Shown: piece by piece, positions 4,042 to 31,544 of the stretch
Layout: each line of letters starts with the position of its first letter
Position numbering within the stretch: position 1 is the first letter of the stretch
Assembly: GCA_043735145.1 (NCBI GenBank)
Contig: JAYTEN010000041.1
Span: 1-31,784, forward strand
Origin: Gemmatimonadota bacterium
Lineage (GTDB): Bacteria; Gemmatimonadota; Gemmatimonadetes; Gemmatimonadales; JACORV01
Reading direction: 5' to 3'
Length of the DNA: 31,784 nt
Made by a program: the position numbers and the translations under genes
The notes under the pieces: generated by a model
Told to the model about the DNA's origin: nothing
The model's input: the letters and a program-made list of their open reading frames with translations, nothing else
The model's database searches: none

Positions 4042-4114
4042 GGCTGGAATCCGGAAGCTGGAGTCGGGACGACTCCCGGCGGCACTTCGGCTTCGGCCGG
4101 GCAGGCAATCGTCT

Positions 4115-4135
4115 AGATTCCAGATTCCAGATTCC
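4115..4135. repeat. 7-bp tandem repeat (AGATTCC)x3 upstream of valS
   Basis: Directly visible; a complementary CTGGAATC lies at 4044-4051. Confidence 0.85.
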
Positions 4136-4140
4136 GGTCT

Positions 4141-4146
4141 TACACT
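4141..4146 (+). promoter_or_regulatory. -10-like hexamer TACACT 9 nt before the valS ATG (possible leaderless or near-leaderless mRNA)
   Basis: TANNNT immediately upstream of the start, with no Shine-Dalgarno. Confidence 0.45.
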
Positions 4147-4155
4147 CAGGCGCGC

Positions 4156-6849
4156 ATGAACGAGACAGAACTCAGTCCCCAGTATTCTGCGTCCGCGATC
4201 GAGCCCCCGCTCTACCAGGAGTGGCTGGCCCGCGGCCTCTTCACGCCCGACCCGTTGTCGGACCGCGACCCCTTCGTCATCGTGATCCCGCCACCTAACG
4301 TGACGGACAAGCTCCACGTGGGCCACGGGCTGAACAACACCGTGCAGGACGTGATCGTGCGCTTCGAGCGCATGCGGGGGCGCGACACGCTGTGGCTGCC
4401 GGGCACCGACCACGCCGGCATCGCGACCCAGAACGTGGTCGAGAAGCTGCTCGCGAAGGAAGGGAAGACGCGCTTCGACCTGGGCCGCGAGGCGTTCGTG
4501 AAGCGGGTCGAGGCGTACGTGGCCAAGACCGGGACCACGATCCTCGAGCAGCTCAAGGCCATCGGCGCGTCGTGCGACTGGACCCGCACCGCGTACACCC
4601 TCTCGCCGCACCTCTCGCGCGCAGTGCGCGAGGTGTTCGTCCGCCTCTGGGAGGAAGAGCTGATCTACCGCGGCCACCGGGTGATCCACTGGTGCCCGCG
4701 GTGCCTGACGAGCTTGTCGGACGAAGAGGCCGAGCACACTGAGCGCGACGGGCATCTCTATCATATCCGGTATCCGCTGGCCGACGGCTCGGGCTTCGTC
4801 ACCGTGGCGACCACGCGCCCCGAGACGCTGCTGGGCGACGTCGCCATCGCGGTGAGCCCCGAGGACGAGGCCAAGGCGAAGTACATCGGGAAGATGGTGC
4901 GGGTGCCCTTCGCCGACGTGGAGATCCCGATCATCGCCGACGAGGCGGTGGAGATGGGTTTCGGCACCGGCTTCCTCAAGATCACGCCGGCCCACGACCC
5001 GAACGACTTCGAGACCGGCAAGCGCCACCACCTGCCGATGCCGGTGATCCTGGCTCCCGATGCAACCCTGGCCGACGCGGCGCTCGAGGGGAAGGCCGGC
5101 GGCCGCGTGCCGCCCGAGCTGTTCGGCATGGATCGCTTCGAGGCGCGGCGCGTCATGGTCGAGCAACTCAAGCACCTGAAGCTGCTCGAGAAGGTCGAGC
5201 CGCACCGCCATGCCATCCGCCACTGCTATCGCTGCGATACCATCGTGGAGCCGCGGCTCAGCGACCAGTGGTTCGTGCGCACGAAGGGGTTCGCCGAGCG
5301 GGCGCTGAAGGCCCACCTGGACGGCAAGGTGCGCTTCATCCCCGAGCGGCGGGGCGAGGAGTTCAACCAGTGGCTGGAGAACATCCGCGACTGGAACATC
5401 TCGCGGCAGCTCTGGTGGGGGCACCGCATCCCGGTCTGGTACTGCGATGCCTGCAAGACGTCGAAGGCGTACCGCGAAGACCCGACGGCGTGCGACACCT
5501 GCGCCGGCCCGCTGCGCCAGGACGAGGACGTGCTCGATACCTGGTTCAGCAGCTGGCTGTGGCCGTTCTCGACCCTGGGCTGGCCCGACGACACGGCCGA
5601 CCTGCGGCGCTACTACCCGACCGACGTGCTGGTCACGGCGCCGGAGATCCTGTTCTTCTGGGTGGCGCGGATGATCTTCGCCGGGATGCACTTCCTGGGC
5701 GAGGTGCCGTTCCACACCGTGTACCTGCACGGCACGGTGCGCGACACCCAGCACCGCAAGATGTCCAAGTCGTTAGGTAACGGCATCGACCCGCTGGATG
5801 TGGTGCGGCTCTACGGCGCCGACGCGCTGCGCTTCACCGTGACCAACGGCCTCGCCGTGGGCACCGACATCATCCTCGACAACAACGACCTCGAGGCGAG
5901 CTTCGCGAGCGGGCGGAATTTCGCCAACAAGCTGTGGAATGTCGGGCGGCTGGTGCTCTCGCACCTTGCGGACGGGGGGACGGGGGGATGGGGGGCCGGG
6001 GGGTCTGGAATCGATGCCGAACGGCTGACGCTGGCCGACCGGTGGATACTGTCCAGGCTCGACCGGTGCGTGCGCGAGGCGACCGACCACATGGAGCGCT
6101 TCCGGCTGAACGATGCGACCGGGACGCCGTACCACTTCCTGTGGGACGACTTCGCCGACTGGTATCTCGAGGCGATCAAGCCGCGCCTCTATGGCGACGA
6201 GCCGGGCGGCGACGTGGCGCGCGCGGTGGCGGTGCAGTGCTTCGACACGGTGCTGCGGCTGCTGCACCCGATCATGCCGTTCATCACCGAGACCCTTTTC
6301 CGCCGGCTTCCCGGCAACACCGGCCGCACCATCGTCACCGCCCCATGGCCGGCGACCCGCGGCGCCGAGGATACGGCGACGGAAGCGGACTTCGCGTTCG
6401 TGCAGGCGCTGGTGGACGGCATCCGCGCCATCCGCGCCGACGCCAACGTGAAGCCGGGGCAGACGGTCGCTGCGTCAATCGCGGGGCTCACGCCGCGCGC
6501 GCGGGCCGCCATGGACGCCGAACGCGGCATGATCATGCGTCTCGCCAGGCTGTCGTCGCTCGACGAAGCCGAGCCGTCGGGGCCAGGCGGGTTCGCGGTG
6601 CTGCCGGGCGGCGCGTCGGTGTTTGTGGGCCTGGCCGGCGCCGTGGACGTGGCGAAAGAATGTGGCCGCCTGGGCGAGGAGCTCCAGCGGCTCGAGCGCC
6701 AACTCGAAGGGCTCACGTCCAAGCTTGCCAACGAGAATTTTCTGGCCAAGGCAAAACCGGAAGTCGTGGTTCAGGAGCGACAGAAGCAGACCGACTGGAC
6801 CGAGAAGGCGGGAACGTTGCGGGCGAAGCAGAAGGCGCTGGGATGCTGA
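4156..6849 (+). CDS. valS: Valine--tRNA ligase, 897 aa
   Basis: PPPNVT..LHVGH (HIGH), GTDHAGIATQ, ATTRPET, ITPAHDPND, WNISRQLWWGHRIP, DVLDTWFSS, KMSKSLGN and a C-terminal coiled-coil arm. Confidence 0.98.
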   Translation: MNETELSPQYSASAIEPPLYQEWLARGLFTPDPLSDRDPFVIVIPPPNVTDKLHVGHGLNNTVQDVIVRFERMRGRDTLWLPGTDHAGIATQNVVEKLLAKEGKTRFDLGREAFVKRVEAYVAKTGTTILEQLKAIGASCDWTRTAYTLSPHLSRAVREVFVRLWEEELIYRGHRVIHWCPRCLTSLSDEEAEHTERDGHLYHIRYPLADGSGFVTVATTRPETLLGDVAIAVSPEDEAKAKYIGKMVRVPFADVEIPIIADEAVEMGFGTGFLKITPAHDPNDFETGKRHHLPMPVILAPDATLADAALEGKAGGRVPPELFGMDRFEARRVMVEQLKHLKLLEKVEPHRHAIRHCYRCDTIVEPRLSDQWFVRTKGFAERALKAHLDGKVRFIPERRGEEFNQWLENIRDWNISRQLWWGHRIPVWYCDACKTSKAYREDPTACDTCAGPLRQDEDVLDTWFSSWLWPFSTLGWPDDTADLRRYYPTDVLVTAPEILFFWVARMIFAGMHFLGEVPFHTVYLHGTVRDTQHRKMSKSLGNGIDPLDVVRLYGADALRFTVTNGLAVGTDIILDNNDLEASFASGRNFANKLWNVGRLVLSHLADGGTGGWGAGGSGIDAERLTLADRWILSRLDRCVREATDHMERFRLNDATGTPYHFLWDDFADWYLEAIKPRLYGDEPGGDVARAVAVQCFDTVLRLLHPIMPFITETLFRRLPGNTGRTIVTAPWPATRGAEDTATEADFAFVQALVDGIRAIRADANVKPGQTVAASIAGLTPRARAAMDAERGMIMRLARLSSLDEAEPSGPGGFAVLPGGASVFVGLAGAVDVAKECGRLGEELQRLERQLEGLTSKLANENFLAKAKPEVVVQERQKQTDWTEKAGTLRAKQKALGC
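5972..6003 (+). repeat. (NN-GGGGGG)x4 in-frame tract in valS, a G-quadruplex-type motif
   Basis: G6-AC-G6-AT-G6-CC-G6 (5974-6003), encoding DGGTGGWGAGG. Confidence 0.9.
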
Positions 6850-8384
6850 GAAAGACCGTCGAAACGTCGAAACGTCGAAACGTCAAAGCGTGGACATGTT
6901 TTCGCTTCGACGCTTCGACGCTTCGACGCTTCGACGTGTTGCTACTTGCTCTCATCGCCGCGTGCGCCTCCACCGGCGATCCCCCGGGCGGGGCGCCGGA
7001 CCGCACCCCGCCCACCGTTCTGAGCGTGTCGCCGGAATCGGGCGCGGTGCTCGGCGCGCCGCCCGCGGAAGCCCGCATCACCTTCGACGAAGTCATCAGC
7101 GAGCGCACCGGCGGCCAGCCGCCCGACATCAGCGCCGCCGTGTTGCTCTCACCGACGGCCGAAGCGGTGCGGGTGCAATGGAAGCGCGACCACATCACCG
7201 TGCGCCCCAAATCGGGATTCCAGGCGGGACGCATCTATCACCTCGAGCTGCTGCCCGTCATCACCGACCTGCGCACCAATCGGATGCGCGCCGGACGGAC
7301 CATCGTCTTCTCGACCGGCCCCGCGATCCCCGACTCGCGCCTCGAGGGCACCGTGGTGGACTGGGTCGCCGGCCGCCCCGCGGCGCGCGCGCTGATCGAG
7401 GCGGTGCTGATGCCCGACTCGCTGGTCTACCGCACCCTCGCCGACTCGGGCGGGGTGTTCCGGCTCTCGCAGGTCCCGCCCGGACACTACCGCGTCTACG
7501 GCGTGATCGACCAGAACAACGACCGCCGGCGCGGCCTGCGCGAGATCTACGACTCGGCCGGCGTGGACCTCGACAGCGTGGCGCCGCCACTGGAGCTGTA
7601 CGCGTTCGCGCGCGACACCGTCGGCCCGCGGCTGCGGCAGACCGAAGTCGTCGACTCGATGACGCTGAAGCTGACCTTCGACCGTCCCCTCGATCCCACG
7701 CTGGTGCTCGACACCGCCATGGTGACGGTCGCGGCGCTCGAGGATTCCACCACGGCGCTTCCGCTGCTCGGCGTGTACACGCTGAAGGGTCTCGACTCGG
7801 CAAAAACCCGCGCCGACTCGATCCGCCGCGCCGCCGCCGACACGCTGCCGCGCGTGCCCGCCGACAGCCTGCGCCCGCCGGCCGGCAACACCAGTCGCGG
7901 CATTCCGCCCGACACGACGCGCCGCGTGCGGCCCGACACCACCCGCCGCGCGCCGGGGGATACCACCCGCGCCCGCGCCCGGGCGGGTGCGCCGGTGCGC
8001 CCGCCGGTCCGGACGCCGCAGGATTCCACCTGGCGCACCGTCCGGCCGCCGCTCGATTCCACCCGCGCCGACCGGATGATCGCACGCCATCCCGCGCCCA
8101 CCGACGTGCGCATCGTGCAGCTCGCGGAGCCGCTGGTGCCCGGCACCCGGTACGTGGTCTTCGTGCGCGGCGCGCGCAGCCTGTCGGGGAATGCCAAGGA
8201 TGGGCGCGGGCAGGTGCGGGCGCCGAGACCAGCAAGGCAGGCGCCAGGTCGCCCAGTCGCCAAGCCAGACAGCGCCGGCGTGACGCCACCCGACAGCACG
8301 CAGCGCGATTCCACGCCGATGCGCGCGGATAGCGCGCGCCCGGCCCCGCGCGACAGCACCACCCCGCCGGTTCGCCGCCCGTGA
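6843..8384 (+). CDS. Ig-like (Big_5-type) domain lipoprotein with a carboxypeptidase-regulatory-like domain and low-complexity D-S/T-rich C-terminal region, 513 aa
   Basis: Lipobox LIAA-C followed by ASTGDPPGGAPDRTPP, resembling Bacteroidota C-A-x-x-G-x-P-x-GG-x-x-D-x-x-PP Ig-like lipoproteins; VPPGHYRVYG..D.N.D. The ATG at 6843 overlaps the valS stop; an alternative in-frame GTG lies at 6936. Confidence 0.75.
   Translation: MLRKTVETSKRRNVKAWTCFRFDASTLRRFDVLLLALIAACASTGDPPGGAPDRTPPTVLSVSPESGAVLGAPPAEARITFDEVISERTGGQPPDISAAVLLSPTAEAVRVQWKRDHITVRPKSGFQAGRIYHLELLPVITDLRTNRMRAGRTIVFSTGPAIPDSRLEGTVVDWVAGRPAARALIEAVLMPDSLVYRTLADSGGVFRLSQVPPGHYRVYGVIDQNNDRRRGLREIYDSAGVDLDSVAPPLELYAFARDTVGPRLRQTEVVDSMTLKLTFDRPLDPTLVLDTAMVTVAALEDSTTALPLLGVYTLKGLDSAKTRADSIRRAAADTLPRVPADSLRPPAGNTSRGIPPDTTRRVRPDTTRRAPGDTTRARARAGAPVRPPVRTPQDSTWRTVRPPLDSTRADRMIARHPAPTDVRIVQLAEPLVPGTRYVVFVRGARSLSGNAKDGRGQVRAPRPARQAPGRPVAKPDSAGVTPPDSTQRDSTPMRADSARPAPRDSTTPPVRRP
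6857..6935. repeat. Palindromic 8-bp microsatellite (CGTCGAAA)x3-4 ... (GCTTCGAC)x4
   Basis: Left arm 6857-6888, central ACATGT 6894-6899, right arm 6904-6935; the arms are reverse complements with one mismatch per unit. Confidence 0.92.
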
Positions 8385-8410
8385 GCCCCGAGGCCGGGAC
8401 ACTGCCGACC

Positions 8411-8434
8411 TGGCGACTTGGCGACTTGGCGACT
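8411..8434. repeat. 8-bp tandem repeat (TGGCGACT)x3 directly before the selA start
   Basis: Directly visible; reverse-complement-like copies at 8244-8264 and 9070-9098. Confidence 0.9.
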
Positions 8435-8436
8435 TG

Positions 8437-9861
8437 ATGGACCCCCGCCGCGCGCTCCCGTCGGTGGATTCGCTCCTCCGCTCCCCCGCGATCGCGGCGT
8501 TAGGCGCGGCATCGGGGCGCGAGGCGCTGGTGCGCGCGATCCGCGGCACCCTCGCAGCGGTCCGCGCCACGCCGGGGATGCCGGCGCCGGCCGACGGGCA
8601 GTGGGCCCCGCTGATTTCGGCGCACCTCGCGGGCGCCGAGACGCCGACGCTGCGGCGGGTCGTCAACGCCACCGGGGTGGTGTTGCACACCAACCTCGGC
8701 CGGGCGCCCCTGGCGCGCAAAGCGCTCGATGCCATCGGCGAGGCCGCGGCCAACTACAGCACCCTCGAGTACGACGTCGCCAGGGGCGCCCGCGGCAGCC
8801 GCCATGTGCATTGCGCCGACCTGCTGACGGCATTGACCGGCGCGCCGGATGCAATGGTCGTGAACAACGCGGCGTCGGCGCTGCTCCTCGTGCTCGCGGC
8901 GGCGGCCGACGGCGGCCGCACCATCGTGTCCCGCGGCGAGCTGATCGAGATCGGCGGCGGGTTCCGCATTCCGGAGATCATGGAGCGGAGCGGGACGACG
9001 CTGGTCGAGGTGGGGACGACCAACAGAACTCGCGTGGGCGACTATGAACGGGCGATCGGCAAGCAGCCGCCAGGTCGCCAGGTCGCCAAGTCGCCCAGCC
9101 AGCGAACCTCGAGCGCCGTACCGCCATACCGCCGTACCGCCCTGCTCAAGGTGCACCGCTCCAACTTCAGGATCGAAGGCTTCACCGCGGAGGCCTCGCT
9201 CGAGGAGCTGGTGGCGCTGGGCAGGAAGAAGAAAGTGCCGGTGCTCTACGACCTCGGCGGCGGGCTGATGTTCGATCTCGACGTGCCGGGGCTGTCCGGA
9301 GAACCGACCCTTCCCGATTCGGCGCGCAGCGGCCCGACCGCCGTCGTCGCGTCGGGCGACAAGCTCCTCGGCGGACCGCAGGCCGGCATCATCGTCGGGA
9401 CCGCGAAGTTCGTCGCCGCGTGCCGCGCGCACCCGCTGGCGCGCGCGGCGCGCGCCGACAAGCTCACCCTCGCGGCGCTGTCGGCCACGCTTCAGCTCTA
9501 CCGCGATCCGGCCCGACGCGCGTCAATCCCGGTCATCGGCATGCTGACCATCCCGCTCCCGGAGCTGGAACAGCGCGCCGCCGTGCTGGCCGCCGCGCTG
9601 CCCGCCGCCGCGCGGGCCACCGTCGTGCCGACCCGCGCGGCGGTGGGCGGCGGCGCCTTCCCCGGCGTGGAGCTCGAGAGCCGCGGCGTCGCGCTCGATC
9701 CCGGGAACGTCAGCGCGAGCACCCTGGCCGCGCGGCTGCGCGCGCACCCGGTGCCGGTGGTGGGCGTGGTGCACAAGGGCCGCGTGGTGCTCGACGTCCG
9801 GGCGCTGCTGCACGGCGATGACGCCGTCATCGCCGACGCCGTCGCGGGCGCTCTGGCATGA
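8437..9861 (+). CDS. selA: L-seryl-tRNA(Sec) selenium transferase (SelA family, PLP-dependent)
   Basis: VVNATGVVLHTNLGRAPL, VVNNAASA, SRGELIEIGGGFRIPEIM, VEVGTTNRT, KVHRSNF and SGDKLLGGPQAG (PLP lysine). Confidence 0.93.
   Translation: MDPRRALPSVDSLLRSPAIAALGAASGREALVRAIRGTLAAVRATPGMPAPADGQWAPLISAHLAGAETPTLRRVVNATGVVLHTNLGRAPLARKALDAIGEAAANYSTLEYDVARGARGSRHVHCADLLTALTGAPDAMVVNNAASALLLVLAAAADGGRTIVSRGELIEIGGGFRIPEIMERSGTTLVEVGTTNRTRVGDYERAIGKQPPGRQVAKSPSQRTSSAVPPYRRTALLKVHRSNFRIEGFTAEASLEELVALGRKKKVPVLYDLGGGLMFDLDVPGLSGEPTLPDSARSGPTAVVASGDKLLGGPQAGIIVGTAKFVAACRAHPLARAARADKLTLAALSATLQLYRDPARRASIPVIGMLTIPLPELEQRAAVLAAALPAAARATVVPTRAAVGGGAFPGVELESRGVALDPGNVSASTLAARLRAHPVPVVGVVHKGRVVLDVRALLHGDDAVIADAVAGALA
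9070..9141 (+). repeat. Two 8-bp microsatellites inserted in frame in selA
   Basis: CCAGGTCG x2 plus CCAAGTCG (9070-9093), and GCCGTACC/GCCATACC/GCCGTACC (9115-9138). Confidence 0.9.
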
Positions 9862-10421: not shown

Positions 10422-10464
10422 CCTGCCACGGTGACGGGGATCACAGGCGCGGGCCATCGCTCGC

Positions 10465-10497
10465 TTGAACGCCCGGCACCGGCAGGGCATATTGCCC
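10465..10497 (+). promoter_or_regulatory. Sigma70-like promoter with an overlapping palindrome
   Basis: TTGAAC (10465-10470)-N17-CATATT (10488-10493); the inverted repeat GGGCA-TAT-TGCCC (10485-10497) overlaps the -10. Confidence 0.45.
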
Positions 10498-10553
10498 ATA
10501 CCCCCAAACGCATCCCGCTTCTATCCGGTCCACGTCCGCGGAGGTTGGTCCGT

Positions 10554-11915
10554 ATGACCCATCGATTCACCACCGGCTCGGTGAGCGTCTTCGCCCTCGC
10601 CCTGCTGTGCCTGGCACCGCGCGCGGGCGTCGCGCAGAACAACTACACCCAGCAGATGCAGGGCTACATGGCGCAGTACGCGCAGTCCGCGCAGTCGCGC
10701 GGCTACTCGCCCGTCACGCCCATGGTCACCGGCAACCTGAACCAGGGCGCGAACACCTCGCATAACTTCCCCCTGACGGCCGGCCGCAATTACGTCATCA
10801 TCGGCGTGTGCGACCGCGACTGCACCGACGTCGACCTGCGCCTCTACGACGCGTCGGGCAATACGATCGCCTCCGATGTCGCGGTGGACGATCATCCGAC
10901 GCTCCAGTTCACCGCGGGCATGTCGGGCAACTTCCGGCTCCAGGTCGAGATGGCGACCTGTTCGACCAACCCCTGCTATTACGGCGTGCAGCTCTTCGGT
11001 GGCGCGATGGGCGGCGGCAACAGCGGCGTCGCGCTCGCTCCGCAGCCGCAGCCGATGGGACAGCCGCAGCCGATGGCGATCAGCGCGCCCACGGCGATGG
11101 GCGTCATCGCCGCCAACCAGCAGGTCACCGGAAACCTCACCGCGATGGACGGCCGCTGGGACGGCAAACCCGCCCAGACGTGGCAGTTTCAGTGCCAGCC
11201 CGGCCAGGCGTTCCAGATGGACGTGCTTTCGACGTGGGATAACTACGCCATCGTCTTCGATCCGATGGGCACGCCTGTCGCCCACGACGACGACGGCGGA
11301 CCGGAAGGCCTGAACGCGCGCATCAGCTACACCTGCGCGATGGCGGGGATGTACCGCCTCGCGGTGACGACCTATACCAGCAGCACCACGCCCGGCACCT
11401 ACACCCTCCAGGTGCAGGCGATGGCCCCCGTCGCGCTCAACCAGCCGATGCCGATGAACCAGCCGCAGGCGCTGCCCACGGCGCAGCCGATGCAGCTGCC
11501 GGTCCAGCAGAGCGCGCCCGGCGCGACGATGCCGTCGCCCGCGCCGATCAGCCTGCCGCTCACCGGCAGCATCCCGGCGCCCGGCCAGATCGGCCAGATC
11601 CAGATAGGGACCAACGTGCAGGGCCGTCTCGAGACCGGCGACCAGCGCATGAACGACGGGACCTTCGCCGACGTCTGGCAGTTCTCGGGCACGGCCGGGC
11701 AGCACATCATCATCGAGCTGCGGTCGGAGGAGTTCGACACCTACGTCCAGCTCCTCGATGCCGCCGGCAACCGGCTGGCCGAGGATGACGACTCGCTGGG
11801 CGACCTCGATTCGAAGGTGGAGATCACGCTGCCTTCGAGCGGGGGCTTCCAGATCGTCGTGAACAACTTCGGCGAGGATCGCCGGGCCGGCATCTATACC
11901 CTGACGCTGCGCTAG
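10554..11915 (+). CDS. Secreted protein with a Cys-containing N-terminal beta-domain and two PPC (pre-peptidase C-terminal-like) domains, 453 aa
   Basis: GGAGG at 10540-10544 before ATG 10554; signal peptide ending AGVA-Q; PPC-like patterns (DNYAIVFDPMG..VAHDDDGG..GLNARISY; DTYVQLLDAAGNRLAEDDDSLGDLDSKVEITLP); Gln/Pro/Met linkers. Confidence 0.75.
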   Translation: MTHRFTTGSVSVFALALLCLAPRAGVAQNNYTQQMQGYMAQYAQSAQSRGYSPVTPMVTGNLNQGANTSHNFPLTAGRNYVIIGVCDRDCTDVDLRLYDASGNTIASDVAVDDHPTLQFTAGMSGNFRLQVEMATCSTNPCYYGVQLFGGAMGGGNSGVALAPQPQPMGQPQPMAISAPTAMGVIAANQQVTGNLTAMDGRWDGKPAQTWQFQCQPGQAFQMDVLSTWDNYAIVFDPMGTPVAHDDDGGPEGLNARISYTCAMAGMYRLAVTTYTSSTTPGTYTLQVQAMAPVALNQPMPMNQPQALPTAQPMQLPVQQSAPGATMPSPAPISLPLTGSIPAPGQIGQIQIGTNVQGRLETGDQRMNDGTFADVWQFSGTAGQHIIIELRSEEFDTYVQLLDAAGNRLAEDDDSLGDLDSKVEITLPSSGGFQIVVNNFGEDRRAGIYTLTLR

Positions 11916-12752: not shown

Positions 12753-12761
12753 CGCCGCCTT

Positions 12762-12789
12762 CCCCACTCCCCCGCGTCCCCACCTCCCC
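12762..12789 (-). repeat. Four C4-5 tracts at about 8-bp period between purN and purH (G-quadruplex motif on the minus strand)
   Basis: CCCC-ACT-CCCCC-GCGT-CCCC-ACCT-CCCC. Confidence 0.65.
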
Positions 12790-12809
12790 ACTATTGCGGA
12801 GCCCCAGTA

Positions 12810-14336: not shown

Positions 14337-14341
14337 CAAGA

Positions 14342-14368
14342 GGAGAGCGGAGAGCGGAGAGCGGAGAG
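14342..14368. repeat. 7-bp tandem repeat (GGAGAGC)x3.9 after purH
   Basis: Directly visible; a degenerate complementary C/T-rich arm at about 14441-14467 lies inside the next signal peptide. Confidence 0.88.
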
Positions 14369-15904: not shown

Positions 15905-15933
15905 TAGAATCTAGAATCTAGAATCTAGATTCT
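15905..15933. repeat. (TAGAATC)x3 plus TAGATTCT palindromic microsatellite between convergent genes
   Basis: Contains the perfect 14-bp palindrome AGAATCTAGATTCT (15920-15933), centred on the kinase stop codon. Confidence 0.88.
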
Positions 15934-21871: not shown

Positions 21872-21882
21872 CTCCTCCCGCC

Positions 21883-24356: not shown

Positions 24357-24369
24357 TATCCCCCTCAAC

Positions 24370-24401
24370 GCTTCGACGCTTCGACGTTTCGACGCTTCGA
24401 C
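24370..24401. repeat. 8-bp tandem repeat (GYTTCGAC)x4 upstream of tRNA-Ser(GCU)
   Basis: Same unit as 6904-6935. Confidence 0.9.
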
Positions 24402-24413
24402 GTTTTGGTTTCC

Positions 24414-24500
24414 GGAGCGGTGGCCGAGTGGCTTAAGGCACAGGTTTGCTAAACCTGCGTAGGGGCAACCTTACCGGGGGTTCGAATCCCCCCCGCTCCG
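24414..24500 (+). tRNA. tRNA-Ser (anticodon GCU)
   Basis: Acceptor GGAGCGG/CCGCTCC; D-arm GCCGAGTGGCTTAAGGC; anticodon stem CAGGT-TTGCTAA-ACCTG (GCT 24448-24450); long variable arm; GGTTCGAATCC; CCA not encoded. Confidence 0.95.
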
Positions 24501-24517
24501 TTGGTTCTCCGCAGCCG

Positions 24518-27500
24518 TCAGCCGTCGGTCCGCGCCGCCAGCTCGCCCGCCCGCTGCACCGTTTCCAGCAACGTCGCGATGGTGAACGGCTTCTGCAGGA
24601 ACAGAGTCCCGGCCGACACGGCACCCTGGTTCAGGGCGTCCTCCTCACTGTAGCCGGACATGAGCACGATCTGGATCCGGCCGTCGAGCAGCCGGACCCG
24701 CTCGGCGACCTGCCGCCCTGACAGCTGCGGCATCACCATGTCGGTCAGCAAGAGATCGATGTGACCCCGGTGCTCCTCGGCGAGCACCAGCCCCTGCGCT
24801 CCATCGGACGCTTCGAGTACCGTGTATCCGTGCCGAATCAGGACCCGTGAGAGCAGCGCACGCACCGCGGCTTCATCCTCGACCAGGAGGATCGTGCCTG
24901 ACGCCGAAGCGGCGGGGTCCCGCGGCATTTCCGGGGCGCGCATCTCCGGCCGCGCGTCCACCCGCGGCAGGAGGACGACGAACGACGTGCCGCGGCCGCG
25001 CGCGCTGTCGACGCGAATGGCTCCCCCGCTCTGCTGCACGATCCCATACACGGTCGCGAGCCCCAACCCGGTTCCCGACTGCTTGGTTGTGAAGAAGGGC
25101 TCGAAGATGCGCGCCATCGTGTTCTCGTCCATGCCGGTGCCGCTATCGGCGACCTCGAGCGCCGCGAATCGACCCGGGGGCAGACCCCACGCCCTACCTC
25201 CGTCCGCATCGAGCTCGACGTTCCGGGTGGACAGCGTCAGCCGGCCGCCGGACGGCATGGCGTCGCGGGCATTGATGGCGAGGTTCAGAATCACCTGGCC
25301 GATCTGGGAATCGTCGGCCAGCACCGCCCCCAGGTCGGGATCGCGCTCGATGACGAGCTGGATATGCTCGCCGATGAGCCGCTCCAGCATCCGCACCAGC
25401 TCGTCGACGGTCGCGTTGAGATCCAGCGGCCGGGGCTGGAGCACCTGCCGGCGGCTGAACGCGAGCAGTTGATGCGTCAGATCCGACGCCCGGTCGGCGC
25501 CGCGGCGGATCTCGGCGAGATCCTGGCGGCGCGGATCGTCCGCATCCACCGTCGCGATCAGCAGGTCGGTGTAGCCGCTGATGGCTGTCAGGACGTTGTT
25601 GAAGTCGTGCGCGATACCGCCCGCCAGCCTGCCGATCGCCTCCATCTTCTGCGATTCCGCGAGCTGGCGCTGGAGCAGCTGGAGCGCCGTGATATCGCGC
25701 GCCACCGTGGACAGGAACTCCACCGAGCCGTCGGCACCCTTGTGAGCCAGGATGACTTGCGAGACCGGAATCTCGCGGCCGTCACGCGCGAGCAGGGCGG
25801 TCTCGCCGACCCAAGCGCCATCCCGGATGGCCGCGGGCAGGCCTTCACGCAGGATCAGCTCGCTCGCCCAGGCGGGGCGGAAGTCGGAGACCGGCCGACC
25901 CACCACATCTTCCTGCTCGGCGATGCCGACGAGGCGGCGGCCGGCGCGATTCAAGTAGAGCATCCGCCCCTCCGCCGTGGCGCTGCCCACGTAGTCGGTG
26001 GTTCCCTCGAGGATGGCCAACAGCCGACGCTGCTCGGCCTCCACGCGGCGTGATTCCGACAGATCACGGACGAAGGCGCTGAAGACCCAGTGGCCGTCGA
26101 TCCGGAGCGGGACAATGCCAAGCTCCACCGGCACCAGGCTGCCGTCGCGGCGCCGGGCATCGCGAAAGATGCGCTGGCCGAGGATACGGGCCTCGCCGGT
26201 CGCGATGAATCGGTCGAAGCCGTGGCGGTGCAGCCCGCGATCGACCGGCGGGATGATGGTCTCCTCGATCGGCCGGCCGACCGCCTCCCCGGCCGTCCAC
26301 CCGAAGGTGCGCTCGGCCTGGGCATTCCATCCGGTAATGATCCCCGTGTCGTTCACCACGATCACCGAGTCCAGCGACGCGTCGATGACGCCGCGCAGGG
26401 TCGCCTCCGAGGTGCGCAGCGCGGTCTCGGCGCGCCGGCGCTCGGTCATGTCCATCATCGCCCCCAGCATGCGCGTGGGGGCGCCGCGCGAATCACGCAA
26501 CACAAAACCGCGGTCGTAGATATCGGCATAGGAGCCATCGGCTCGGCGGAACCGGTAGTCATCGGTCCAGGCACTGCCGCCCTGGTCGATCACGGCATGG
26601 ATCCCGTGCACGACCCGATCGAGATCGTCGGGATGCAAGTGGCTGGTCCACGACGTGATGTCGACGGCACCATCCCGCGGGTGGCCAAAAGCGGTCTCGA
26701 AGTTTTCGTTCCACCACAGCGCGTCGGTTTGCAGGTCCCAGTCCCAAACGACGTCGTTGGTGGCGCGGGCCACCAGCTCGAATCGTTCGCGGTTGGCCTG
26801 CGAAGCGACGGTTGCCAGCCGCCGGTCGGTGATGTCCTCCGCCACGCCCACGACGCCGGAGATTGCTCCCTGCAGGTCGCGCAGCGGCACGACGCGGTAA
26901 TAGAAGTGGCGCCCCTGCCATTCGATCTCATGACCGATCGCTTCGCCAGCGAGGGCGTCGCGGTGCGCCGCGATGGCCGTAGCATTGGTGCCCATGTGCT
27001 CGTAGAGCGACATGCCTACAACCTGATCGGGGGCGAGGTTCAGCGCTCCCAGCCCGGCCCCGAGGGAACTCGTGAGGCGCAGATCGCGGTCGGTCGTCCA
27101 CACTGTTGCGGGCACCTGGCTCAGGATGTGGCGGACGCGGTGCTCTTCCTCCCGCAGCCGCACTTCGGCGCGGCGCGCCGACAGCGCGACGGCGCGCAGC
27201 TCGATGGACGATAGCACGCAGGTCGCGAGGTGCTCGAGCAAACCGATTTCGGCTTTGGTCCACCGGCGCGGCTTGTGATCGATCACGCACAGGGTGCCAA
27301 GGACGTGGCCGTCGTGGGTGCGCAGGGGAATGCCGGCGTACGCCACCACACCGAGATCCGGGATCGCGAGGTTGTGGCGGACCAGGGGATTGCGCCGAGC
27401 ATCGCTGATGACCAGGGGCTCGCCCGTGACCACGACGTACTGACAGATGGAGTGCGAGAGCGGCGTCTCGCGCAGGTCGCACCAGGGCTTCCCCAGGCCG

Positions 27501-27733
27501 ATGCAGCTCTTGAAGTACTGGCGGTTCTCGTCGACCAGGCTGATCAGCGCGACGGGCGCTTTAAGCAGCCGGGCGGTGAGGCGCGTGAGGCGATCGAACG
27601 CCTCTTCCGCCGGCGAGTCCAGCAGGTCCAGTGCCCGCAGGTGCGCCAGGCGGACGGGGTCACGCAACACGTCAGGGGCAACCGCCTGCGGTGGCTGCCT
27701 GGTACCACGTCGGGTGTGCTTCCGCGGGCCCAT
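24518..27733 (-). CDS. Hybrid sensor histidine kinase (GAF-PASx4-HisKA-HATPase-REC), about 1071 aa
   Basis: GAF (LDSPAEEAFDRLTRL..., GTLCVID), PAS_3-like WDWDL...HPDD, further PAS domains, GGIAHDFNNVL, FEPFFTTK, GTGLGLA and receiver LLVEDE..LLTDMVMP..QKPF. Start taken at MGPRK. Confidence 0.93.
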   Translation of the reverse strand: MGPRKHTRRGTRQPPQAVAPDVLRDPVRLAHLRALDLLDSPAEEAFDRLTRLTARLLKAPVALISLVDENRQYFKSCIGLGKPWCDLRETPLSHSICQYVVVTGEPLVISDARRNPLVRHNLAIPDLGVVAYAGIPLRTHDGHVLGTLCVIDHKPRRWTKAEIGLLEHLATCVLSSIELRAVALSARRAEVRLREEEHRVRHILSQVPATVWTTDRDLRLTSSLGAGLGALNLAPDQVVGMSLYEHMGTNATAIAAHRDALAGEAIGHEIEWQGRHFYYRVVPLRDLQGAISGVVGVAEDITDRRLATVASQANRERFELVARATNDVVWDWDLQTDALWWNENFETAFGHPRDGAVDITSWTSHLHPDDLDRVVHGIHAVIDQGGSAWTDDYRFRRADGSYADIYDRGFVLRDSRGAPTRMLGAMMDMTERRRAETALRTSEATLRGVIDASLDSVIVVNDTGIITGWNAQAERTFGWTAGEAVGRPIEETIIPPVDRGLHRHGFDRFIATGEARILGQRIFRDARRRDGSLVPVELGIVPLRIDGHWVFSAFVRDLSESRRVEAEQRRLLAILEGTTDYVGSATAEGRMLYLNRAGRRLVGIAEQEDVVGRPVSDFRPAWASELILREGLPAAIRDGAWVGETALLARDGREIPVSQVILAHKGADGSVEFLSTVARDITALQLLQRQLAESQKMEAIGRLAGGIAHDFNNVLTAISGYTDLLIATVDADDPRRQDLAEIRRGADRASDLTHQLLAFSRRQVLQPRPLDLNATVDELVRMLERLIGEHIQLVIERDPDLGAVLADDSQIGQVILNLAINARDAMPSGGRLTLSTRNVELDADGGRAWGLPPGRFAALEVADSGTGMDENTMARIFEPFFTTKQSGTGLGLATVYGIVQQSGGAIRVDSARGRGTSFVVLLPRVDARPEMRAPEMPRDPAASASGTILLVEDEAAVRALLSRVLIRHGYTVLEASDGAQGLVLAEEHRGHIDLLLTDMVMPQLSGRQVAERVRLLDGRIQIVLMSGYSEEDALNQGAVSAGTLFLQKPFTIATLLETVQRAGELAARTDG

Positions 27734-27819
27734 CGCTGGAACATTGTCCCCCTCGACAGCCACCGCAAGCACGCCCCGCCGTTGTCGGCCCCCGCGGCCG
27801 CTCTTAACTTAGGCGGCTC

Positions 27820-29088
27820 ATGATCCGCGTCCGATTCGCCCCGTCGCCCACCGGCTACCTCCATGTGGGGGGCGCCCGCACGGCCCTCTTCAACTGGCTC
27901 TTCGTCCAGCACGCGCGACGTGCGGGCGAGGACGCGACCTTCATCCTGCGCATCGAGGACACCGACAAGGAGCGCTCGACCGCGGCGTTCACCCAGGTCA
28001 TCCTCGACGGAATGGCGTGGCTCGGCATGACGCCCGACGAGGGGCCATTCTTCCAGGCCGAGGGCAAGGCGCGCCACCAAGCCGACGCCGACCGCCTCGT
28101 GGCCGAGGGCAAGGCATACCTCGACGACGGCGCGGTGCGCTTTCGCGTGCCGCAGGAAGAGATCGCCTGGGACGACGCGGTCCACGGCCGCATCAGCTTC
28201 CAGGGCAAGGACCTCCAGGACTTCGTCATCCTGCGCGCCGACCGCTCACCGATCTACAACCTTGCGGTCGTCTCCGACGACGTGGACATGAAGATCACGC
28301 ACGTGATCCGCGCCGATGAACACATCTCCAACACGCCCAAGCAGATCCTGCTCTACCGCGCCCTCGGTTACGCGCAGCCGATCTTCGGGCACGTGCCCGT
28401 CGTCAATGGCGCGGATGGCAAGAAGCTCTCCAAGCGGCGCGGCGCCGTCGCCGTCGGCGACTACCAGGAGCGATTCCTGCCGGAGGCGATGGTCAACTTC
28501 CTCGTGCTCATCGGCTGGAGCCCGGGCGGCGACCGCGAGCTGTTCTTCGACCTCAATGAGCTGATCGACGCATTCGCCATCAAGGGGCTCCAGTCGAAAT
28601 CCGGCGTCTTCGACGAGAAGAAGCTCGAGTGGATGAACGCCGAGCACCTGAAGCACATGGGCGCGGCGAAGGTGCTCGCGCGGCTGCACGACGCCGAGCT
28701 GGTGGCGGCGCCTAACGCCGAAGCGATGGTGGGGATCGTGCTGCCCCGCAGCAAGACCATCACCGACGTGCGCGCGCAGGCCCGCAGCCGCGCCGGCCTC
28801 GACCCGATCATCACCGATGACAAGGCGAAGGCGTACGTCGACAAGGACCCCGACGGGTATCGCAGGGGACTCGCGCTCACCGTCCAGGCGCTGCAAGCCA
28901 CCGACGACTGGTCGGCCGCGAATCTCGAGGCGGTCCTGCGCGCCGTGGCGGAGTCGCACGGACTGAAGGCGGGCCAGGTCATGCAGCCGATCCGCATCGC
29001 CCTCACTGGGTCGACGGTGTCGGAGCCGGTGAACGAGACGCTGCACGTGATCGGGAAGGACGCGGCACTCGAACGTCTGAGCCTTTGA
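27820..29088 (+). CDS. gltX: Glutamate--tRNA ligase, short form (422 aa)
   Basis: RVRFAPSPTGYLHVGGARTALFNW, LRIEDTD, YNLAVVSDD, HISNTPKQ, KKLSKR (KMSKS equivalent) and a C-terminal anticodon-binding helices motif (MQPIRIALTG). TAACTT lies 9 nt upstream of the ATG. Confidence 0.93.
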   Translation: MIRVRFAPSPTGYLHVGGARTALFNWLFVQHARRAGEDATFILRIEDTDKERSTAAFTQVILDGMAWLGMTPDEGPFFQAEGKARHQADADRLVAEGKAYLDDGAVRFRVPQEEIAWDDAVHGRISFQGKDLQDFVILRADRSPIYNLAVVSDDVDMKITHVIRADEHISNTPKQILLYRALGYAQPIFGHVPVVNGADGKKLSKRRGAVAVGDYQERFLPEAMVNFLVLIGWSPGGDRELFFDLNELIDAFAIKGLQSKSGVFDEKKLEWMNAEHLKHMGAAKVLARLHDAELVAAPNAEAMVGIVLPRSKTITDVRAQARSRAGLDPIITDDKAKAYVDKDPDGYRRGLALTVQALQATDDWSAANLEAVLRAVAESHGLKAGQVMQPIRIALTGSTVSEPVNETLHVIGKDAALERLSL

Positions 29089-30911
29089 CCGCCCGTCCGC
29101 CCGTTCGCCCGTCCGCCGAGCTGCGCCGGCCCGCTCTTCTTTGGGCGCTGCTGCATGTGCCCGTCATCCTCTTCCTCTACAAGACGTCCCTCGTCATCGC
29201 CGTCGGCACCCTCACCGGGGGCTACCGGGCGGCAATGCTCGTCGCCTGGGTACTGGAAGCGTGCTTCCTCGCCACCCTGCCCTTCCTGGCCGGCTTGCTC
29301 TTCAGCCGCAACGCGCGCGTCTATCGCTGGGCCGCACCGGCGCTGTCAGCGCTCTTCGCCGTCATCCTCGCGGTCGACAGCCGGCTCTACGAGGCGCTCG
29401 CCTTCCATCTCAACTCGCTCATCATCCGCGTTGCCTTCCAGCCCGGCGCGCTGGGCCAGATCGGCATTCCGGAGAGCGAGTTCGCGATATTCGCCGCCAT
29501 CGTGGCCGCGCTGGTGGTGGCCGATATCGTGGCGGGTACGCGATTCATCGGCCGGTTCGCGTCGCCGGGGTGGCGATGGCGGTATCTGGCCATCCTCGCG
29601 CTGCTGCCCGTGGCCGACCGGCTGCTGGTCGCGACGCTGAACTTCACCGGCGGGCGCACGGTGATCGCGGCGGGCGACGTCATGCCGCTCCAGATCCGCT
29701 TCACCATGAGCAAGCTGCTGTCGAAGCTCACGGGCCGCCCGTTCGGGGGCACCGAGGATCGCCTCGCGCTGGCCGCCGGCCGCACCGCGCCGCCGCCGCT
29801 CCTGCCGGCCGACTCGGTCACCTTCACGCGCCGCCCCGACGTGGTGCTGATCCTGATCGAGAGCCTGCGCTCGGACTTTCTCTCCGACTCGGTGATGCCC
29901 CGCCTGTGGCAGCGGAGCCGGTCGGGCACGCGCTTCACGCATCACTACGCGTCCGCGAGCTCCACGCACTTCACCCTCTTCTCGATTGTCTACGGCGAGA
30001 ACGCGCAGAAGCTCGAGTCGGTGGTGGGCGCGGGGCGGCCGCCGCTCCTCTTCGGCGCGATGCGCGCCCACGGCTATCACACGCGGCTGATCACGGCGAG
30101 CTCGGTCGACTGGATGGGGATGAAGCAGACGGTCTTCCGCGACGTCTCGGGCGATCTCGACACCGACATCCCGGGCACCGGCGTGGCCCGCGACTCGGCG
30201 ATGCTGGCGCGGGCCACCGACTGGGTCTCGCGGGCCGACTCGCAGCCGGTCTTCCTGGTGCTCTTCTTCGACGGCACGCACTTCAACTACTCGTACTCGC
30301 CGGCGTCGCGGAAATTCACCCCCGACTGGGACGGGGCCGGCAGCATCACCGCCGCGCGCGTCGAGCCCATCCTGATGAAGCGGCGCGCCATGAACGCCGC
30401 CTACGAGGTGGACACGCAGATCGAGGGATTCCTCAACTGGTTCTCGCGGCGGCGGGGGCACGCGCCGCTGACCGTCGTCACCGGCGACCATGGCGAAGCC
30501 TTCCGCGAGCACGGCCGCGTGGGCCACGGCGCCGGCGTCGCCGAGGAAGAGATCCACGTGCCGATGGTGATGGTGGACGACAGCCTGGCGCGCGGCGTGA
30601 CGGACGGCGTGACGAGCCACGTGGACATCGTGCCGACCATCTTCCACCTGCTCGGCGACCGCCACGACCCCGCTACCTACAGCGACGGCGCGCCGATGAC
30701 GGCGCCGCCGCCGGGGCGCTTCGTGGTATCGACGGCGGGGTGGATTCCTCGTTATGCGGTCGTCGGCGAGCGGCTCAAGGCGCAGTTCTTCGGGCTCGAC
30801 GCCGGGCTGGGAAGCGTGACCCTCACCGGCCCGGCCGACGAGCCCCTGCCCGATGCCAATGCGCTGTTGCGGCTGAACGCGCCGGCGATTCTACGGGCTC
30901 TTCGGCGCTAA
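29085..30911 (+). CDS. Membrane-anchored sulfatase/alkaline-phosphatase-superfamily protein, YejM(PbgA)-like
   Basis: About five N-terminal TM helices; VVLILIESLRSD, HYASASST..TLFSIVYG, FFDGTHFNY, TGDHGE and TSHVDIVPT. No CxPxR/SxPxR formylglycine motif. TTG start overlaps the gltX stop. Confidence 0.75.
   Translation: MTARPPVRPSAELRRPALLWALLHVPVILFLYKTSLVIAVGTLTGGYRAAMLVAWVLEACFLATLPFLAGLLFSRNARVYRWAAPALSALFAVILAVDSRLYEALAFHLNSLIIRVAFQPGALGQIGIPESEFAIFAAIVAALVVADIVAGTRFIGRFASPGWRWRYLAILALLPVADRLLVATLNFTGGRTVIAAGDVMPLQIRFTMSKLLSKLTGRPFGGTEDRLALAAGRTAPPPLLPADSVTFTRRPDVVLILIESLRSDFLSDSVMPRLWQRSRSGTRFTHHYASASSTHFTLFSIVYGENAQKLESVVGAGRPPLLFGAMRAHGYHTRLITASSVDWMGMKQTVFRDVSGDLDTDIPGTGVARDSAMLARATDWVSRADSQPVFLVLFFDGTHFNYSYSPASRKFTPDWDGAGSITAARVEPILMKRRAMNAAYEVDTQIEGFLNWFSRRRGHAPLTVVTGDHGEAFREHGRVGHGAGVAEEEIHVPMVMVDDSLARGVTDGVTSHVDIVPTIFHLLGDRHDPATYSDGAPMTAPPPGRFVVSTAGWIPRYAVVGERLKAQFFGLDAGLGSVTLTGPADEPLPDANALLRLNAPAILRALRR
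29090..29117. repeat. 8-bp tandem repeat (CGCCCGTY)x3.5 forming the first codons of the YejM-like gene
   Basis: CGCCCGTC CGCCCGTT CGCCCGTC CGCC. Confidence 0.85.
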
Positions 30912-30964
30912 AAAGGGGGAAGGGGGAAGGGGGTCCCCCTTCCCCCTTCCCCCTTCCCCCTTTT
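30911..30964. terminator. Bidirectional terminator-like hairpin built from 7-bp repeats
   Basis: AAAA(GGGGGAA)2GGGGG-T-(CCCCCTT)3CCCCC-TTTT between convergent stop codons. Confidence 0.85.
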
Positions 30965-31486
30965 CTAGAGGTACCGCGCAATCGCCATCAGGCCGACCGC
31001 CACCATCAGGAAGACCGCCGCCAGGCGCGCGGCGCCGAGCAGCTTCTTCTGGAGCCGTCCCATCTGCTCCGACTGCTCCGGCGTGGGCGGCGCACCCGAG
31101 GATTTCAGCGTCGTCACGAGCGCCGTCAGCTTCTTGCCCGTCGGCATGCTGACCGTGACGCCCACGATCGCCGCCACGAGGGCCGCGGTCGCGCCGATCA
31201 TGATCCCGTGGCCCGTGTGCGACAGGAACCAGTCGTGCGAGAAGCCCCCGGAGACGTGCCACATCAGGATCACCCCGCTCAGGATCGTGAACACCATCAG
31301 CATCATCAGGTAGATGGGCAGCTTGCGCACCCGTCCGATCTGATCCATCACCGGTCCAGCCGCGGGGCCCACCGCCATGACGCTCGGCAGGATGATGCGG
31401 GCCACCATGACGGCGCCGCCCACCCAGAGCGAGCCCATGACGATGTGCACGAAGCGGAGCAGAATGACGGTCGTATTGCTTAGCAT
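30965..31486 (-). CDS. Four-helix integral membrane protein (CopD/DUF2269-like N-terminal pattern), 173 aa
   Basis: LRFVHIVMGSLWVGG and four hydrophobic segments; GAGGT SD. Confidence 0.7.
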   Translation of the reverse strand: MLSNTTVILLRFVHIVMGSLWVGGAVMVARIILPSVMAVGPAAGPVMDQIGRVRKLPIYLMMLMVFTILSGVILMWHVSGGFSHDWFLSHTGHGIMIGATAALVAAIVGVTVSMPTGKKLTALVTTLKSSGAPPTPEQSEQMGRLQKKLLGAARLAAVFLMVAVGLMAIARYL

Positions 31487-31520
31487 CGATGACCTCGCTG
31501 AAGTGACTTTCGTTCCAAAC

Positions 31521-31544
31521 TCTAGATTCTAGATTCTAGGTTCT
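31521..31544. repeat. 7-bp tandem repeat (TCTAGAT)x3
   Basis: Same family as 15905-15933. Confidence 0.85.

Follow-up and report, generated by a model that had tools for sequence, protein, structure and literature searches.

We analysed a window of 31,784 bases, the whole of contig C41 of a metagenome-assembled genome (MAG) of the Gemmatimonadales, together with the rest of that genome (G000; 2.46 Mb in 323 contigs, 69% GC, 83% complete) and its relatives. The window contains a series of short tandem arrays of 7- or 8-nt units. Across the genome these arrays fall into families, and seven of the families also form inverted arms around genes of the 23S rRNA intervening sequence protein (IVP; PF05635/TIGR02436). 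On balance, we incline to read the arrays as hairpin elements resembling intervening sequences (IVS), which occur as IVP cassettes, gene-less derivatives and solo arms in a dozen or more unit families, and whose copy number is altered by slippage.

Arrays were detected with Tandem Repeats Finder (TRF). Exact arrays were counted from three copies upwards, and the expectation by chance was taken from order-3 and order-5 Markov simulations of the genome. The genome has 107 exact arrays of period 7, 171 of period 8 and 37 of period 9, and the simulations gave none. Periods 4, 5 and at least 10 were at or under the Markov expectation. The arrays are thus long simple-sequence repeats by definition (5-11-nt units, beyond chance), and they recur at many, mostly intergenic, loci in the manner of the short tandemly repeated repetitive (STRR) sequences. 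They are real and not an artefact of assembly. An earlier note on this DNA had listed about 13 arrays in the window, and TRF recovered nearly all of them in place, those at 8244, 12761-12791 and 24512 being weak. The note's remark that the periods are never multiples of three fails for the genome as a whole, which also has 9-nt families such as AAGAAGGTG.

The placement of the arrays relative to genes, which rests on our own crude gene calls, is strongly biased. Among 609 arrays, 295 were intergenic (42.6 expected), 77 straddled a stop codon (11.6 expected) and 165 were internal to genes (489 expected). The enrichment is about 7-fold both between genes and across stop codons, so the preference for gene ends and starts noted in the window is a property of the genome. 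Convergent junctions carry 0.39 arrays each, about 2.3 times the value for tandem and divergent junctions (0.16-0.17). The outer end of an array commonly lies 0-8 nt from a stop codon. In the AATCTAG family 15 of the 25 arrays straddle one, and arrays do supply stop codons, as had been claimed. We also considered stop-free units as a signal and dropped the idea: 80% of the intergenic arrays lack stops on either strand, against a rough chance estimate of about 69% at this GC content, which is not notable.

When units were canonicalised by rotation and strand, about 13 of them covered most of the 542 arrays of the genome, with 12-76 arrays per family. The largest family is AAGTCGCC (76 arrays), followed by AAGCGTCG (37), ACCGCCGT (33), AATCTAG (25), ACGGGGGG (24-29), ACGCACT (24), ACCGGGG (22), AATCTGG (21-23), AAACGTCG and AAGGGGG (21 each), AAGTGGGG (18), the 9-nt AAGAAGGTG (17) and ACTAGGCG (12). 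Only three of the 278 exact 7/8-nt arrays are orphans and the remainder belong to multi-locus families. Most of the arrays therefore cannot have come from generic slippage on arbitrary 7-8-mers. The families differ between species. A 22-nt pattern of the AAGTCGCC unit matches G000 94 times and has no match in 40 relatives, of which six belong to the same genus, and the unit GGCGGACG of the window array at 29089 is rare in G000 and has 24 pattern matches at about 17 places in the same-genus genome G002.

Arrays of one family tend to begin in the same phase of the unit: a single phase opens 29 of the 37 arrays of CGTCGAAG, and two phases together open 60 of the 76 arrays of AAGTCGCC. Neighbouring arrays of the same family always run unit on the plus strand, spacer, unit on the minus strand, and never in direct orientation. 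Their spacers form a main cluster below 60 nt and a second class of about 420-560 nt. The inverted pairs and the recurrence of units at distant loci, which the earlier note had seen in the window, were therefore confirmed genome-wide. Arrays of one family have about 3 to 14 copies, with variant units scattered among them, and the arms of a pair sometimes fail to mirror each other. Facing arrays were also met at unrelated loci, from two MAGs compared for PurH: ACTGACG x18.7 facing GTCAGTT x5 in an Acidobacteriota MAG (L004:15516-15735), and TTAGGCGG x5 facing ACTAACCG x3 in a Gemmatimonadales MAG (L002:3406-3478).

Ten genes of PF05635/TIGR02436, a family of four-helix-bundle, Avd-like proteins, were found in G000, all above the Pfam cut-off. 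Any such gene was present in only one of 14 control genomes. None of the ten lies in the window, which is without a candidate enzyme, as the earlier note had said; the candidates are elsewhere in the genome. Seven of the ten IVP genes are bracketed by convergent inverted arrays, and each of the seven by a different major family: CTGGAAT / AGATTCC on contig C146, AAGGGGG / TCCCCCT on C123, GGCGGTAC x14 / CGTACCGC on C151, CGTCGAAR / TTTCGACG on C52, 9-mers of GTGAAGAAG type on C1, 9-mers of GTGACGAAG type on C170, and GTGCGTA / ACTACGC on C207. Of the 542 arrays, 254 are at most one mismatch from one of these seven cassette units. The examined cassettes sit between protein-coding genes, for example directly past the stops of convergent genes, and not in a 23S rRNA helix. 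The paralogues are old, with branch lengths of about 0.4-1.5 changes per site. The best match of the C146 protein in the PDB is XCC0516 of Xanthomonas (2GSC, five chains in the entry), and the two solved IVP homologues were both deposited with five chains per entry. PF05635 has been reported to be homologous to Avd, a protein of diversity-generating retroelements (DGRs) (PMC10053308).

Two IVP loci of G000 have brackets of another kind. At the C290 gene (G000:C290:2026-2993, gene 2355-2663) the arms are 10 nt long (CAGGRTCAGG / CCTGAYCCTG), and a direct repeat of about 25 nt (GATCAGTAG..GAATACAGACG) stands on both sides outside them. This repeat could be a long target duplication, or the element could have inserted into an older repeat. 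The gene at G000:C161:5199-6166 has a more complex bracket: repeats of about 80 nt in direct orientation, with several CTGTCCCCTGA motifs in them, and an inverted partial copy.

One gene-less family descends from its cassette. In the GGAATCT family, both inner junctions of the gene-less pairs are the same as in the C146 cassette: GGA-cgattg..gcgtg on the left, and gatcg-TCyAGACTCCAGATTCC, with the variant inner unit AGACTCC, on the right. Because these junctions are shared, including the variant unit, the gene-less GGAATCT pairs are internal-deletion derivatives of the C146 cassette. The CGTCGAAG family encloses in its loop a canonical terminator of A-tract, GC-stem and T-tract. Five copies of the terminator core were found by pattern matching. 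All five are flanked by CGTCGAAG arrays and four of them have an identical G-T wobble, which points to descent from one ancestor rather than to independent terminators.

The association was also observed in other genomes. The same-genus relative G004 has just one IVP gene, which stands between GTGGGACG / GTCCCACC arrays, GTGGGACG being the dominant family of that genome. In G002, G003, G008 and G028, 14-15 of 20 IVP loci have inverted arrays of their own units. Among 37 further IVP loci of the order, 17 have an array pair and 12 a one-sided array. Inverted pairs are thus present at about 31 of these 57 IVP loci of the order. At one locus (L188; G008:C1:1191281-1192780), inner arms GCACAGAC / TCTGTGCG are nested inside outer GGGCACAG / CCTGTGCC arrays, which looks like one element inside another.

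We then compared units with proteins, using a maximum-likelihood tree of 30 IVPs and a Mantel test on 38. All members of one clade (support 100/99) have GTGA units, with periods of 7, 8 and 9, and a second supported pair carries GGCGGTAC and GCGGTTAA. Homogeneous arrays are absent from two clades. Protein identity was correlated with the longest shared circular unit word (r = 0.17), and three of 5000 permutations were as high. The shared word was 4.3-5.5 nt at protein identities of at least 50%, compared with 2.9 nt below 40%. As relatives are not independent, this co-variation shows only that the arms are inherited with the gene. Nevertheless, the arms are recognisable at a protein divergence at which neutral DNA is expected to be randomised, which suggests constraint.

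Among the Xanthomonadales, GGGAATC x3 was present in 15 of 151 genomes. Three GGGAATC-rich ones (G128, G094 and G145) have one IVP gene each, located between accB and accC, with GGGAATC/GGGATTC arrays on its two sides. The arms at the IVP gene of a fourth carrier are GGGGACC, and a fifth has no IVP. Since the cassette occupies the same accB-accC site in three genomes, its stable inheritance at a single locus is compatible with dispersal of its unit over the whole genome. These loci tie the published GGGAATC repeats of Xanthomonas to a protein of the XCC0516 type. A direct link across phyla between the C146 protein (arms GGAATCT) and XCC0516 (GGGAATC) was also considered and dropped: the Xanthomonadales IVPs are nearer another clade of the Gemmatimonadales, despite 2GSC being the best PDB match of the C146 protein.

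We propose that the full-length element would be a cassette of about 0.5-0.7 kb, consisting of an array, an IVP gene for a four-helix bundle of about 120 amino acids and the same array inverted, with about 420-560 nt between the arms. Every IVP paralogue would have its own unit of 7, 8 or 9 nt. Gene-less versions, that is, two arms with a short loop and sometimes an intrinsic terminator, and solo arms would occupy hundreds of sites. Elements would persist where they are tolerated, namely past stops, between convergent genes and just before starts; stop-free units would be tolerated in variable surface loops of proteins as well. Copy number would then drift by slipped-strand mispairing. Such elements would be mobile, or would have been so in the past, and their hairpins may act as terminators or RNase III sites. 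An IVP oligomer may recognise its own repeat, perhaps one unit per subunit. A stronger version, in which each IVP binds its own arms sequence-specifically as an oligomer, reads one 7-9-nt unit per subunit and drives the extension and dispersal of the arms with replication and repair enzymes of the host, is offered only tentatively, and we think it is rather doubtful. If it were true, the elements would represent a class of mobile element without a transposase and guided by a protein, and the STRR, Xanthomonas, Geobacter-type and similar heptamer and octamer repeats across phyla would have a common origin.

Many observations weigh against this interpretation. All negative results on the gene content of G000 come from an assembly that is 83% complete, and they are weak evidence of absence. 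No match to RAYT, the tyrosine transposase associated with repetitive extragenic palindromic (REP) sequences (Y1 type; PF01797), was found in G000, while six of 14 control genomes responded, and no reverse transcriptase (PF00078) was found in the assembly. The co-occurrence of either enzyme, which the earlier note had advised looking for, was therefore not borne out. No transposase was found, the master copy encodes none, and no direct repeats were seen around the inverted pairs examined. Without target-site duplication, transposase, RAYT or reverse transcriptase, mobility is left without a mechanism. Causality may even be reversed, since IVP genes could have lodged in existing hairpins. Three of the ten IVP copies in G000 are accompanied by degenerate or complex repeats only. 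The largest family, AAGTCGCC, and the families AATCTAG, ACGGGGGG and ACCGGGG have no IVP cassette in the assembly; we conjecture that short-read bins could well lose cassettes of about 450 bp that have a highly repeated array on either side. Homology of inner junctions between cassettes and gene-less pairs was clear in one family and was not seen for AAGGGGG, GGCGGTAC and CGTCGAAG. The dominant unit of G002 matches none of the three IVP loci examined there, and whole IVP clades, for example that of G031, are without homogeneous arrays. Array density, for which species of a single genus gave values between about 1 and 23 per 100 kb, had no simple relation to IVP count in ten relatives (samples of 28-80 kb per genome, mostly from fragmented MAGs): G003 has seven IVPs and 2.5 arrays per 100 kb, and G004 has one IVP and 23 arrays per 100 kb. 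No pair of filled and empty sites was obtained because the nearest relatives share only about 72-77% protein identity (about 72% for SelA).

Several other explanations have to be weighed against the IVS-like elements. Local polymerase slippage that favours units of about 7 nt, an idea of Mrazek for long simple-sequence repeats (LSSRs), might together with selection have produced the arrays, and the IVP genes would then be bystanders in existing hairpins. The range of copy number, the scattered variant units and the imperfectly mirrored arms are all consistent with slippage, as are the lack of relation between density and IVP count and the occurrence of different arrays in the same protein loops across species. 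A near-orphan array (GGAGAGC at 14342) and an array unique to the SelA site of G003 agree with slippage too. The former shows that there is some local amplification, which does not fit the IVS-like elements. However, slippage does not explain dozens of loci with one unit and the rarity of orphans, nor the preferred end phases and the shared idiosyncratic cores, nor why seven old paralogues are each paired, and co-vary, with a different family. We consider it unlikely. For the same reasons, the active duplicating or templated mechanism of the earlier note needs amendment. Duplication of local sequence does not agree with multi-locus families, preferred phases and matches to IVP arms; an active templated mechanism is possible. 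That interpretation was half right: there is a genome-wide repeat system that builds hairpins, stops and peptide loops, and it is not an amplification of arbitrary junction sequence.

It is also conceivable, although quite improbable in our opinion, that the arrays are selected signals of the host without selfish spread, such as sites of global regulators, bidirectional terminators or stabilisers of mRNA 3′ ends, G-quadruplexes or ribosome-binding spacers. Each family would then serve a single trans-acting factor, perhaps the cognate IVP, as its site. Pairs do lie about 10 nt or less from the stops of convergent genes, convergent junctions are the richest in arrays, one family encloses a terminator, the predicted folds are very stable, units are conserved with IVP subtype, and GGAGAGC x4 stands exactly at the position of a ribosome-binding site. 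Four families are G-rich, and at least four tracts of at least three G are possible in arrays of ACGGGGGG, AAGGGGG, AAGTGGGG and ACCGGGG. Most families, however, cannot form G-quadruplexes, among them AAGTCGCC, AAGCGTCG, AATCTAG, ACGCACT and ACCGCCGT, which by their sequence are unable to do so and hold most arrays. About 100 arrays lie within housekeeping genes, where they only add peptide loops, the genes that flank arrays have no common theme, and units that differ wholly among same-genus species at such different densities would be odd for a conserved regulon. Movement of REPIN-like (REP doublet forming hairpins) or MITE-like (miniature inverted-repeat transposable element) sequences by a conventional transposase, either a RAYT or one encoded by an insertion sequence (IS) and possibly missing from the MAG, would fit the species-specific intergenic families, the inverted doublets with a characteristic spacer and the gene-less derivatives, all of which resemble REPIN/RAYT and MITE/IS systems. 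We find it very improbable, given that G000 gave no PF01797 match while the controls responded, that target-site duplications were not seen, that the arms are tandem arrays of variable length and not a fixed palindrome, and that the gene in full-length copies encodes a 120-amino-acid helical bundle and not a transposase. Errors of assembly or binning are hardly credible as the source. The fragmentation of the MAG (323 contigs) and the breaking of Logan unitigs at arrays of at least 31 nt would fit such errors, but the arrays are shorter than reads. In addition, in-gene arrays keep reading frames open and the same architecture is present in near-complete relatives of 3-10 contigs. In two samples of one study, one of which may be the source of the MAG, Logan contigs read through the 14342 array and show no difference, which answers the concern of the earlier note about artefacts. 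No insertions or deletions over arrays were listed in Logan contigs, which lose rare variants and break at the longer arrays. Only 25 of 646 contig ends in G000 lie in an array, so arrays are not the main cause of its fragmentation.

The genes of the window are ordinary housekeeping ones (thiolase, thrS, valS, selA, purN, purH, gltX, histidine kinase genes and two tRNA-Ser), its closest PurH relatives are Gemmatimonadales MAGs, and DNA of G000 is present in metagenomes from freshwater and other sediments. The arrays are distributed along it as follows. AGATTCC x3 (4115-4135, plus strand) lies 20 nt upstream of the valS ATG (4156); it belongs to the AATCTGG/GGAATCT family and its unit is the arm unit of the C146 cassette (G000:C146:5093-5567). 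GGACGGGG x4.2 (5970-6003, plus strand; family ACGGGGGG) is in frame inside valS, where it encodes the Gly-rich linker DGGTGGWGAGG. A convergent inverted pair begins 8 nt past the valS stop, with CGTCGAAA x3.5 (6857-6884), an 18-nt loop and CGCTTCGA x4.2 (6903-6936), and its family matches the arms of the C52 cassette. Within 6843-6965 this hairpin overlaps the possible 5′ end of the downstream lipoprotein gene, whose candidate starts are an ATG near 6843 and the GTG at 6936. A degenerate CCAGGTCG-type array (8244-8270, plus strand), below the TRF score threshold and a weak member of the AAGTCGCC family, lies near the 3′ end of the lipoprotein gene, and CGACYTGG x3.9 (TRF unit CGACTTGG; 8406-8436, minus strand), also of this largest family, abuts the selA ATG (8437). 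The SelA loop itself contains, in frame, CGCCAGGT x3.5 (9068-9095) and CGCCGTAC x3.5 (9114-9141) on the plus strand.

Further along, a degenerate TCCCCAC-type array (12761-12791, plus strand; 73% matches, at most one mismatch from the CCCCACTT family) lies between the stop of purN and the start of purH. GGAGAGC x3.9 (14342-14368, plus strand) fills the gap from the purH stop (14336) to the next ATG (14369); it is Shine-Dalgarno-like, is the sole exact array of that unit in G000 and is unstructured as predicted RNA. TAGAATC x4.1 (15905-15933), between convergent genes, holds the stop (15925-15927) of a minus-strand histidine kinase gene, and TCTAGAT x3.4 (31521-31544, plus strand) is the reverse complement and rotation of its unit. 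ACGCTTCG x4.4 (24368-24402, plus strand) lies between the start of a hydrolase gene and a tRNA-Ser (24413-24501) and has the same unit as 6903-6936. The CAGCCGT array at 24512 has 2.1 copies only. CCGCCCGT x3.6 (29089-29117, plus strand) starts at the first base after the gltX stop (29086-29088). AAGGGGG x3 joined directly to TCCCCCT x4.1 (30913-30962) makes up a hairpin that is nearly perfect and is framed by the stops of convergent genes (30911, 30965), and its unit matches the arms of the C123 cassette. The hairpins that the earlier note had supposed are supported by predicted RNA folds: -47.7 kcal/mol for 6850-6942 (z -4.6) and -53.1 kcal/mol for 30905-30970 (z -6.2). The solo arrays of the window have no stable fold, unlike the two inverted pairs. 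Two other repeats of the window are of a different nature. A 20-nt unit, TTATAGATCGAGTGCGCGCC x5.6 (1249-1360), directly downstream of the minus-strand thrS, is a single-locus tandem duplication with a longer unit. The repeat GCGCAGTMC of about 9 nt (10671-10700) in a gene for a PPC-domain protein encodes an AQY/AQS peptide repeat and is probably an ordinary coding repeat outside the array families.

About 100 arrays of period 7 or 8 lie inside predicted genes, and 99 of them have units that are stop-free in every frame of the coding strand. They translate as, for example, SPSRQVAKSPS, PPVPPSPRPP and GTGDRGPGTG. Array length modulo 3 is uninformative as a test of frame, as TRF boundaries take in native bases. 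In SelA, the arrays at 9068-9141 form an insert of about 22 amino acids that splits the Pfam SelA match in two. The insert is missing in order-level relatives, and same-genus species hold other arrays at the same loop. Compared with relatives, the SelA loop and the ValRS linker bear out the new peptide segments proposed in the earlier note. G003 has CTCATGG x4 and CCATCAG x4, G002 GGCGGACN x4 and CGTCCGCC x4, and G006 TGGCTGT-type repeats; G008, of the same family, has GCACGGGA x4. The ValRS linker at 5970-6003 is likewise variable among relatives and is repeat-like in G003 and G006 too. Because different arrays occupy the same loops, permissive protein loops are recurrent sites of landing or growth whose sequence turns over between species.

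Reports of dispersed heptamer and octamer repeats go back to 1990 and concern cyanobacteria, Xanthomonas, Geobacter and Beggiatoaceae, and to our knowledge the IVP (S23p) family has no assigned function. The matrix of seven paralogues and seven families merges these two puzzles, the origin of the repeats and the function of the IVP, and it links a kind of bacterial repeat that has long been unexplained to a candidate mobile cassette. The elements rewrite the 3′ ends and stops of genes and add loops to the essential enzymes SelA and ValRS, and they probably shape transcript ends. As arrays break short-read assemblies, they are likely to be under-counted in MAGs.

A close published case is Geobacter metallireducens (Aklujkar et al. 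2009, PMC2700814), which has GTTGCTYN x4 (class 1), TCTCCGTS(Y) x3 (class 2), MTYCTGA x5 (class 3) and GGGACCG x4 at 49 sites. As in G000, several 7-8-nt families coexist in one genome (16-49 sites each, 3-5 copies per site), the sites are mostly paired on opposite strands at variable distance, and some are intragenic. The Geobacter repeats were read as regulator-binding sites or regulatory RNAs and a link to IVP was not reported (PMC2700814), whereas the families of G000 match the arms of IVP cassettes and, with about 540 arrays in its 2.46 Mb, G000 carries about 10 times the load. The heptamers GGGAATC of Xanthomonas and GGGGA(C/T)T of Nostoc, for which G-quadruplexes were proposed and function and origin left open (Rehm et al. 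2015, PMC4692102), resemble the arrays in their hundreds of loci per unit, non-coding bias, position at most 50 nt from stops or starts, preference for about four copies, occasional inverted pairs, and variation of length and sequence between close relatives. Unlike them, most G000 units are unable to form G-quadruplexes. We did not find it stated in PMC4692102 that an IVP gene is bracketed by GGGAATC repeats. The TAACTGA repeats of Beggiatoaceae and the cyanobacterial STRR heptamers covered with them (MacGregor 2015, PMC4679880), as well as, so far as the summary given there goes, the 5-11-nt LSSR class (Mrazek 2007), share with our arrays tandem 7-nt units at many intergenic loci, a sporadic phylogeny and the predominance of heptamers. 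The STRR and TAACTGA systems use a single unit or a few in a given genome, chiefly in direct arrays upstream of starts, and were explained by slippage or translational control; in G000, 8-nt units dominate, families number a dozen or more and convergent pairs are the rule. PMC4692102, PMC4679880 and PMC2700814 all leave the dispersed repeats without an established origin or function.

Other known systems share single features with the elements proposed here. Intervening sequences of 23S rRNA that bear an S23p/IVP open reading frame (ORF) are known from Leptospira and Coxiella; intervening sequences of this type are set in a 23S rRNA helix, and RNase III cuts them out of the rRNA. They have, like the G000 cassettes, a PF05635/TIGR02436 ORF in the loop of a long stem made by flanking inverted repeats, but the cassettes lie between protein-coding genes and not in rRNA helices, and their stems are tandem arrays. 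Unlike DGRs with Avd, the G000 assembly shows no reverse transcriptase. REPINs are species-specific hairpin doublets with a cognate single-copy RAYT gene, and the Rickettsia palindromic elements are tolerated in frame in housekeeping genes. The G000 elements resemble the former as hairpin-doublet families tied to a gene and the latter by their in-frame presence in housekeeping genes. They differ from REPIN/RAYT in lacking a RAYT, in the variable tandem arrays of their arms, and in that the linked gene is no known nuclease or transposase. Inverted arms and a gene-carrying master exist as in MITEs, but the pairs examined showed no flanking direct repeats and the master encodes no transposase. 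Contingency repeats have 1-6-nt units in 5′ coding or promoter regions of surface and virulence genes, whereas the G000 units are of 7-9 nt, mostly at 3′ ends, next to housekeeping genes (valS, selA, purH, gltX), and in-gene arrays remain in frame. Our literature searches found no paper that connects IVP genes with heptamer repeats. Similar arrays are already published from cyanobacteria, Beggiatoaceae, Xanthomonas, Nostoc and Geobacter; G000 adds to them the match of each paralogue to a family inside a single genome, the co-variation between units and IVP clades, and the direct tie to the GGGAATC repeats of Xanthomonas.

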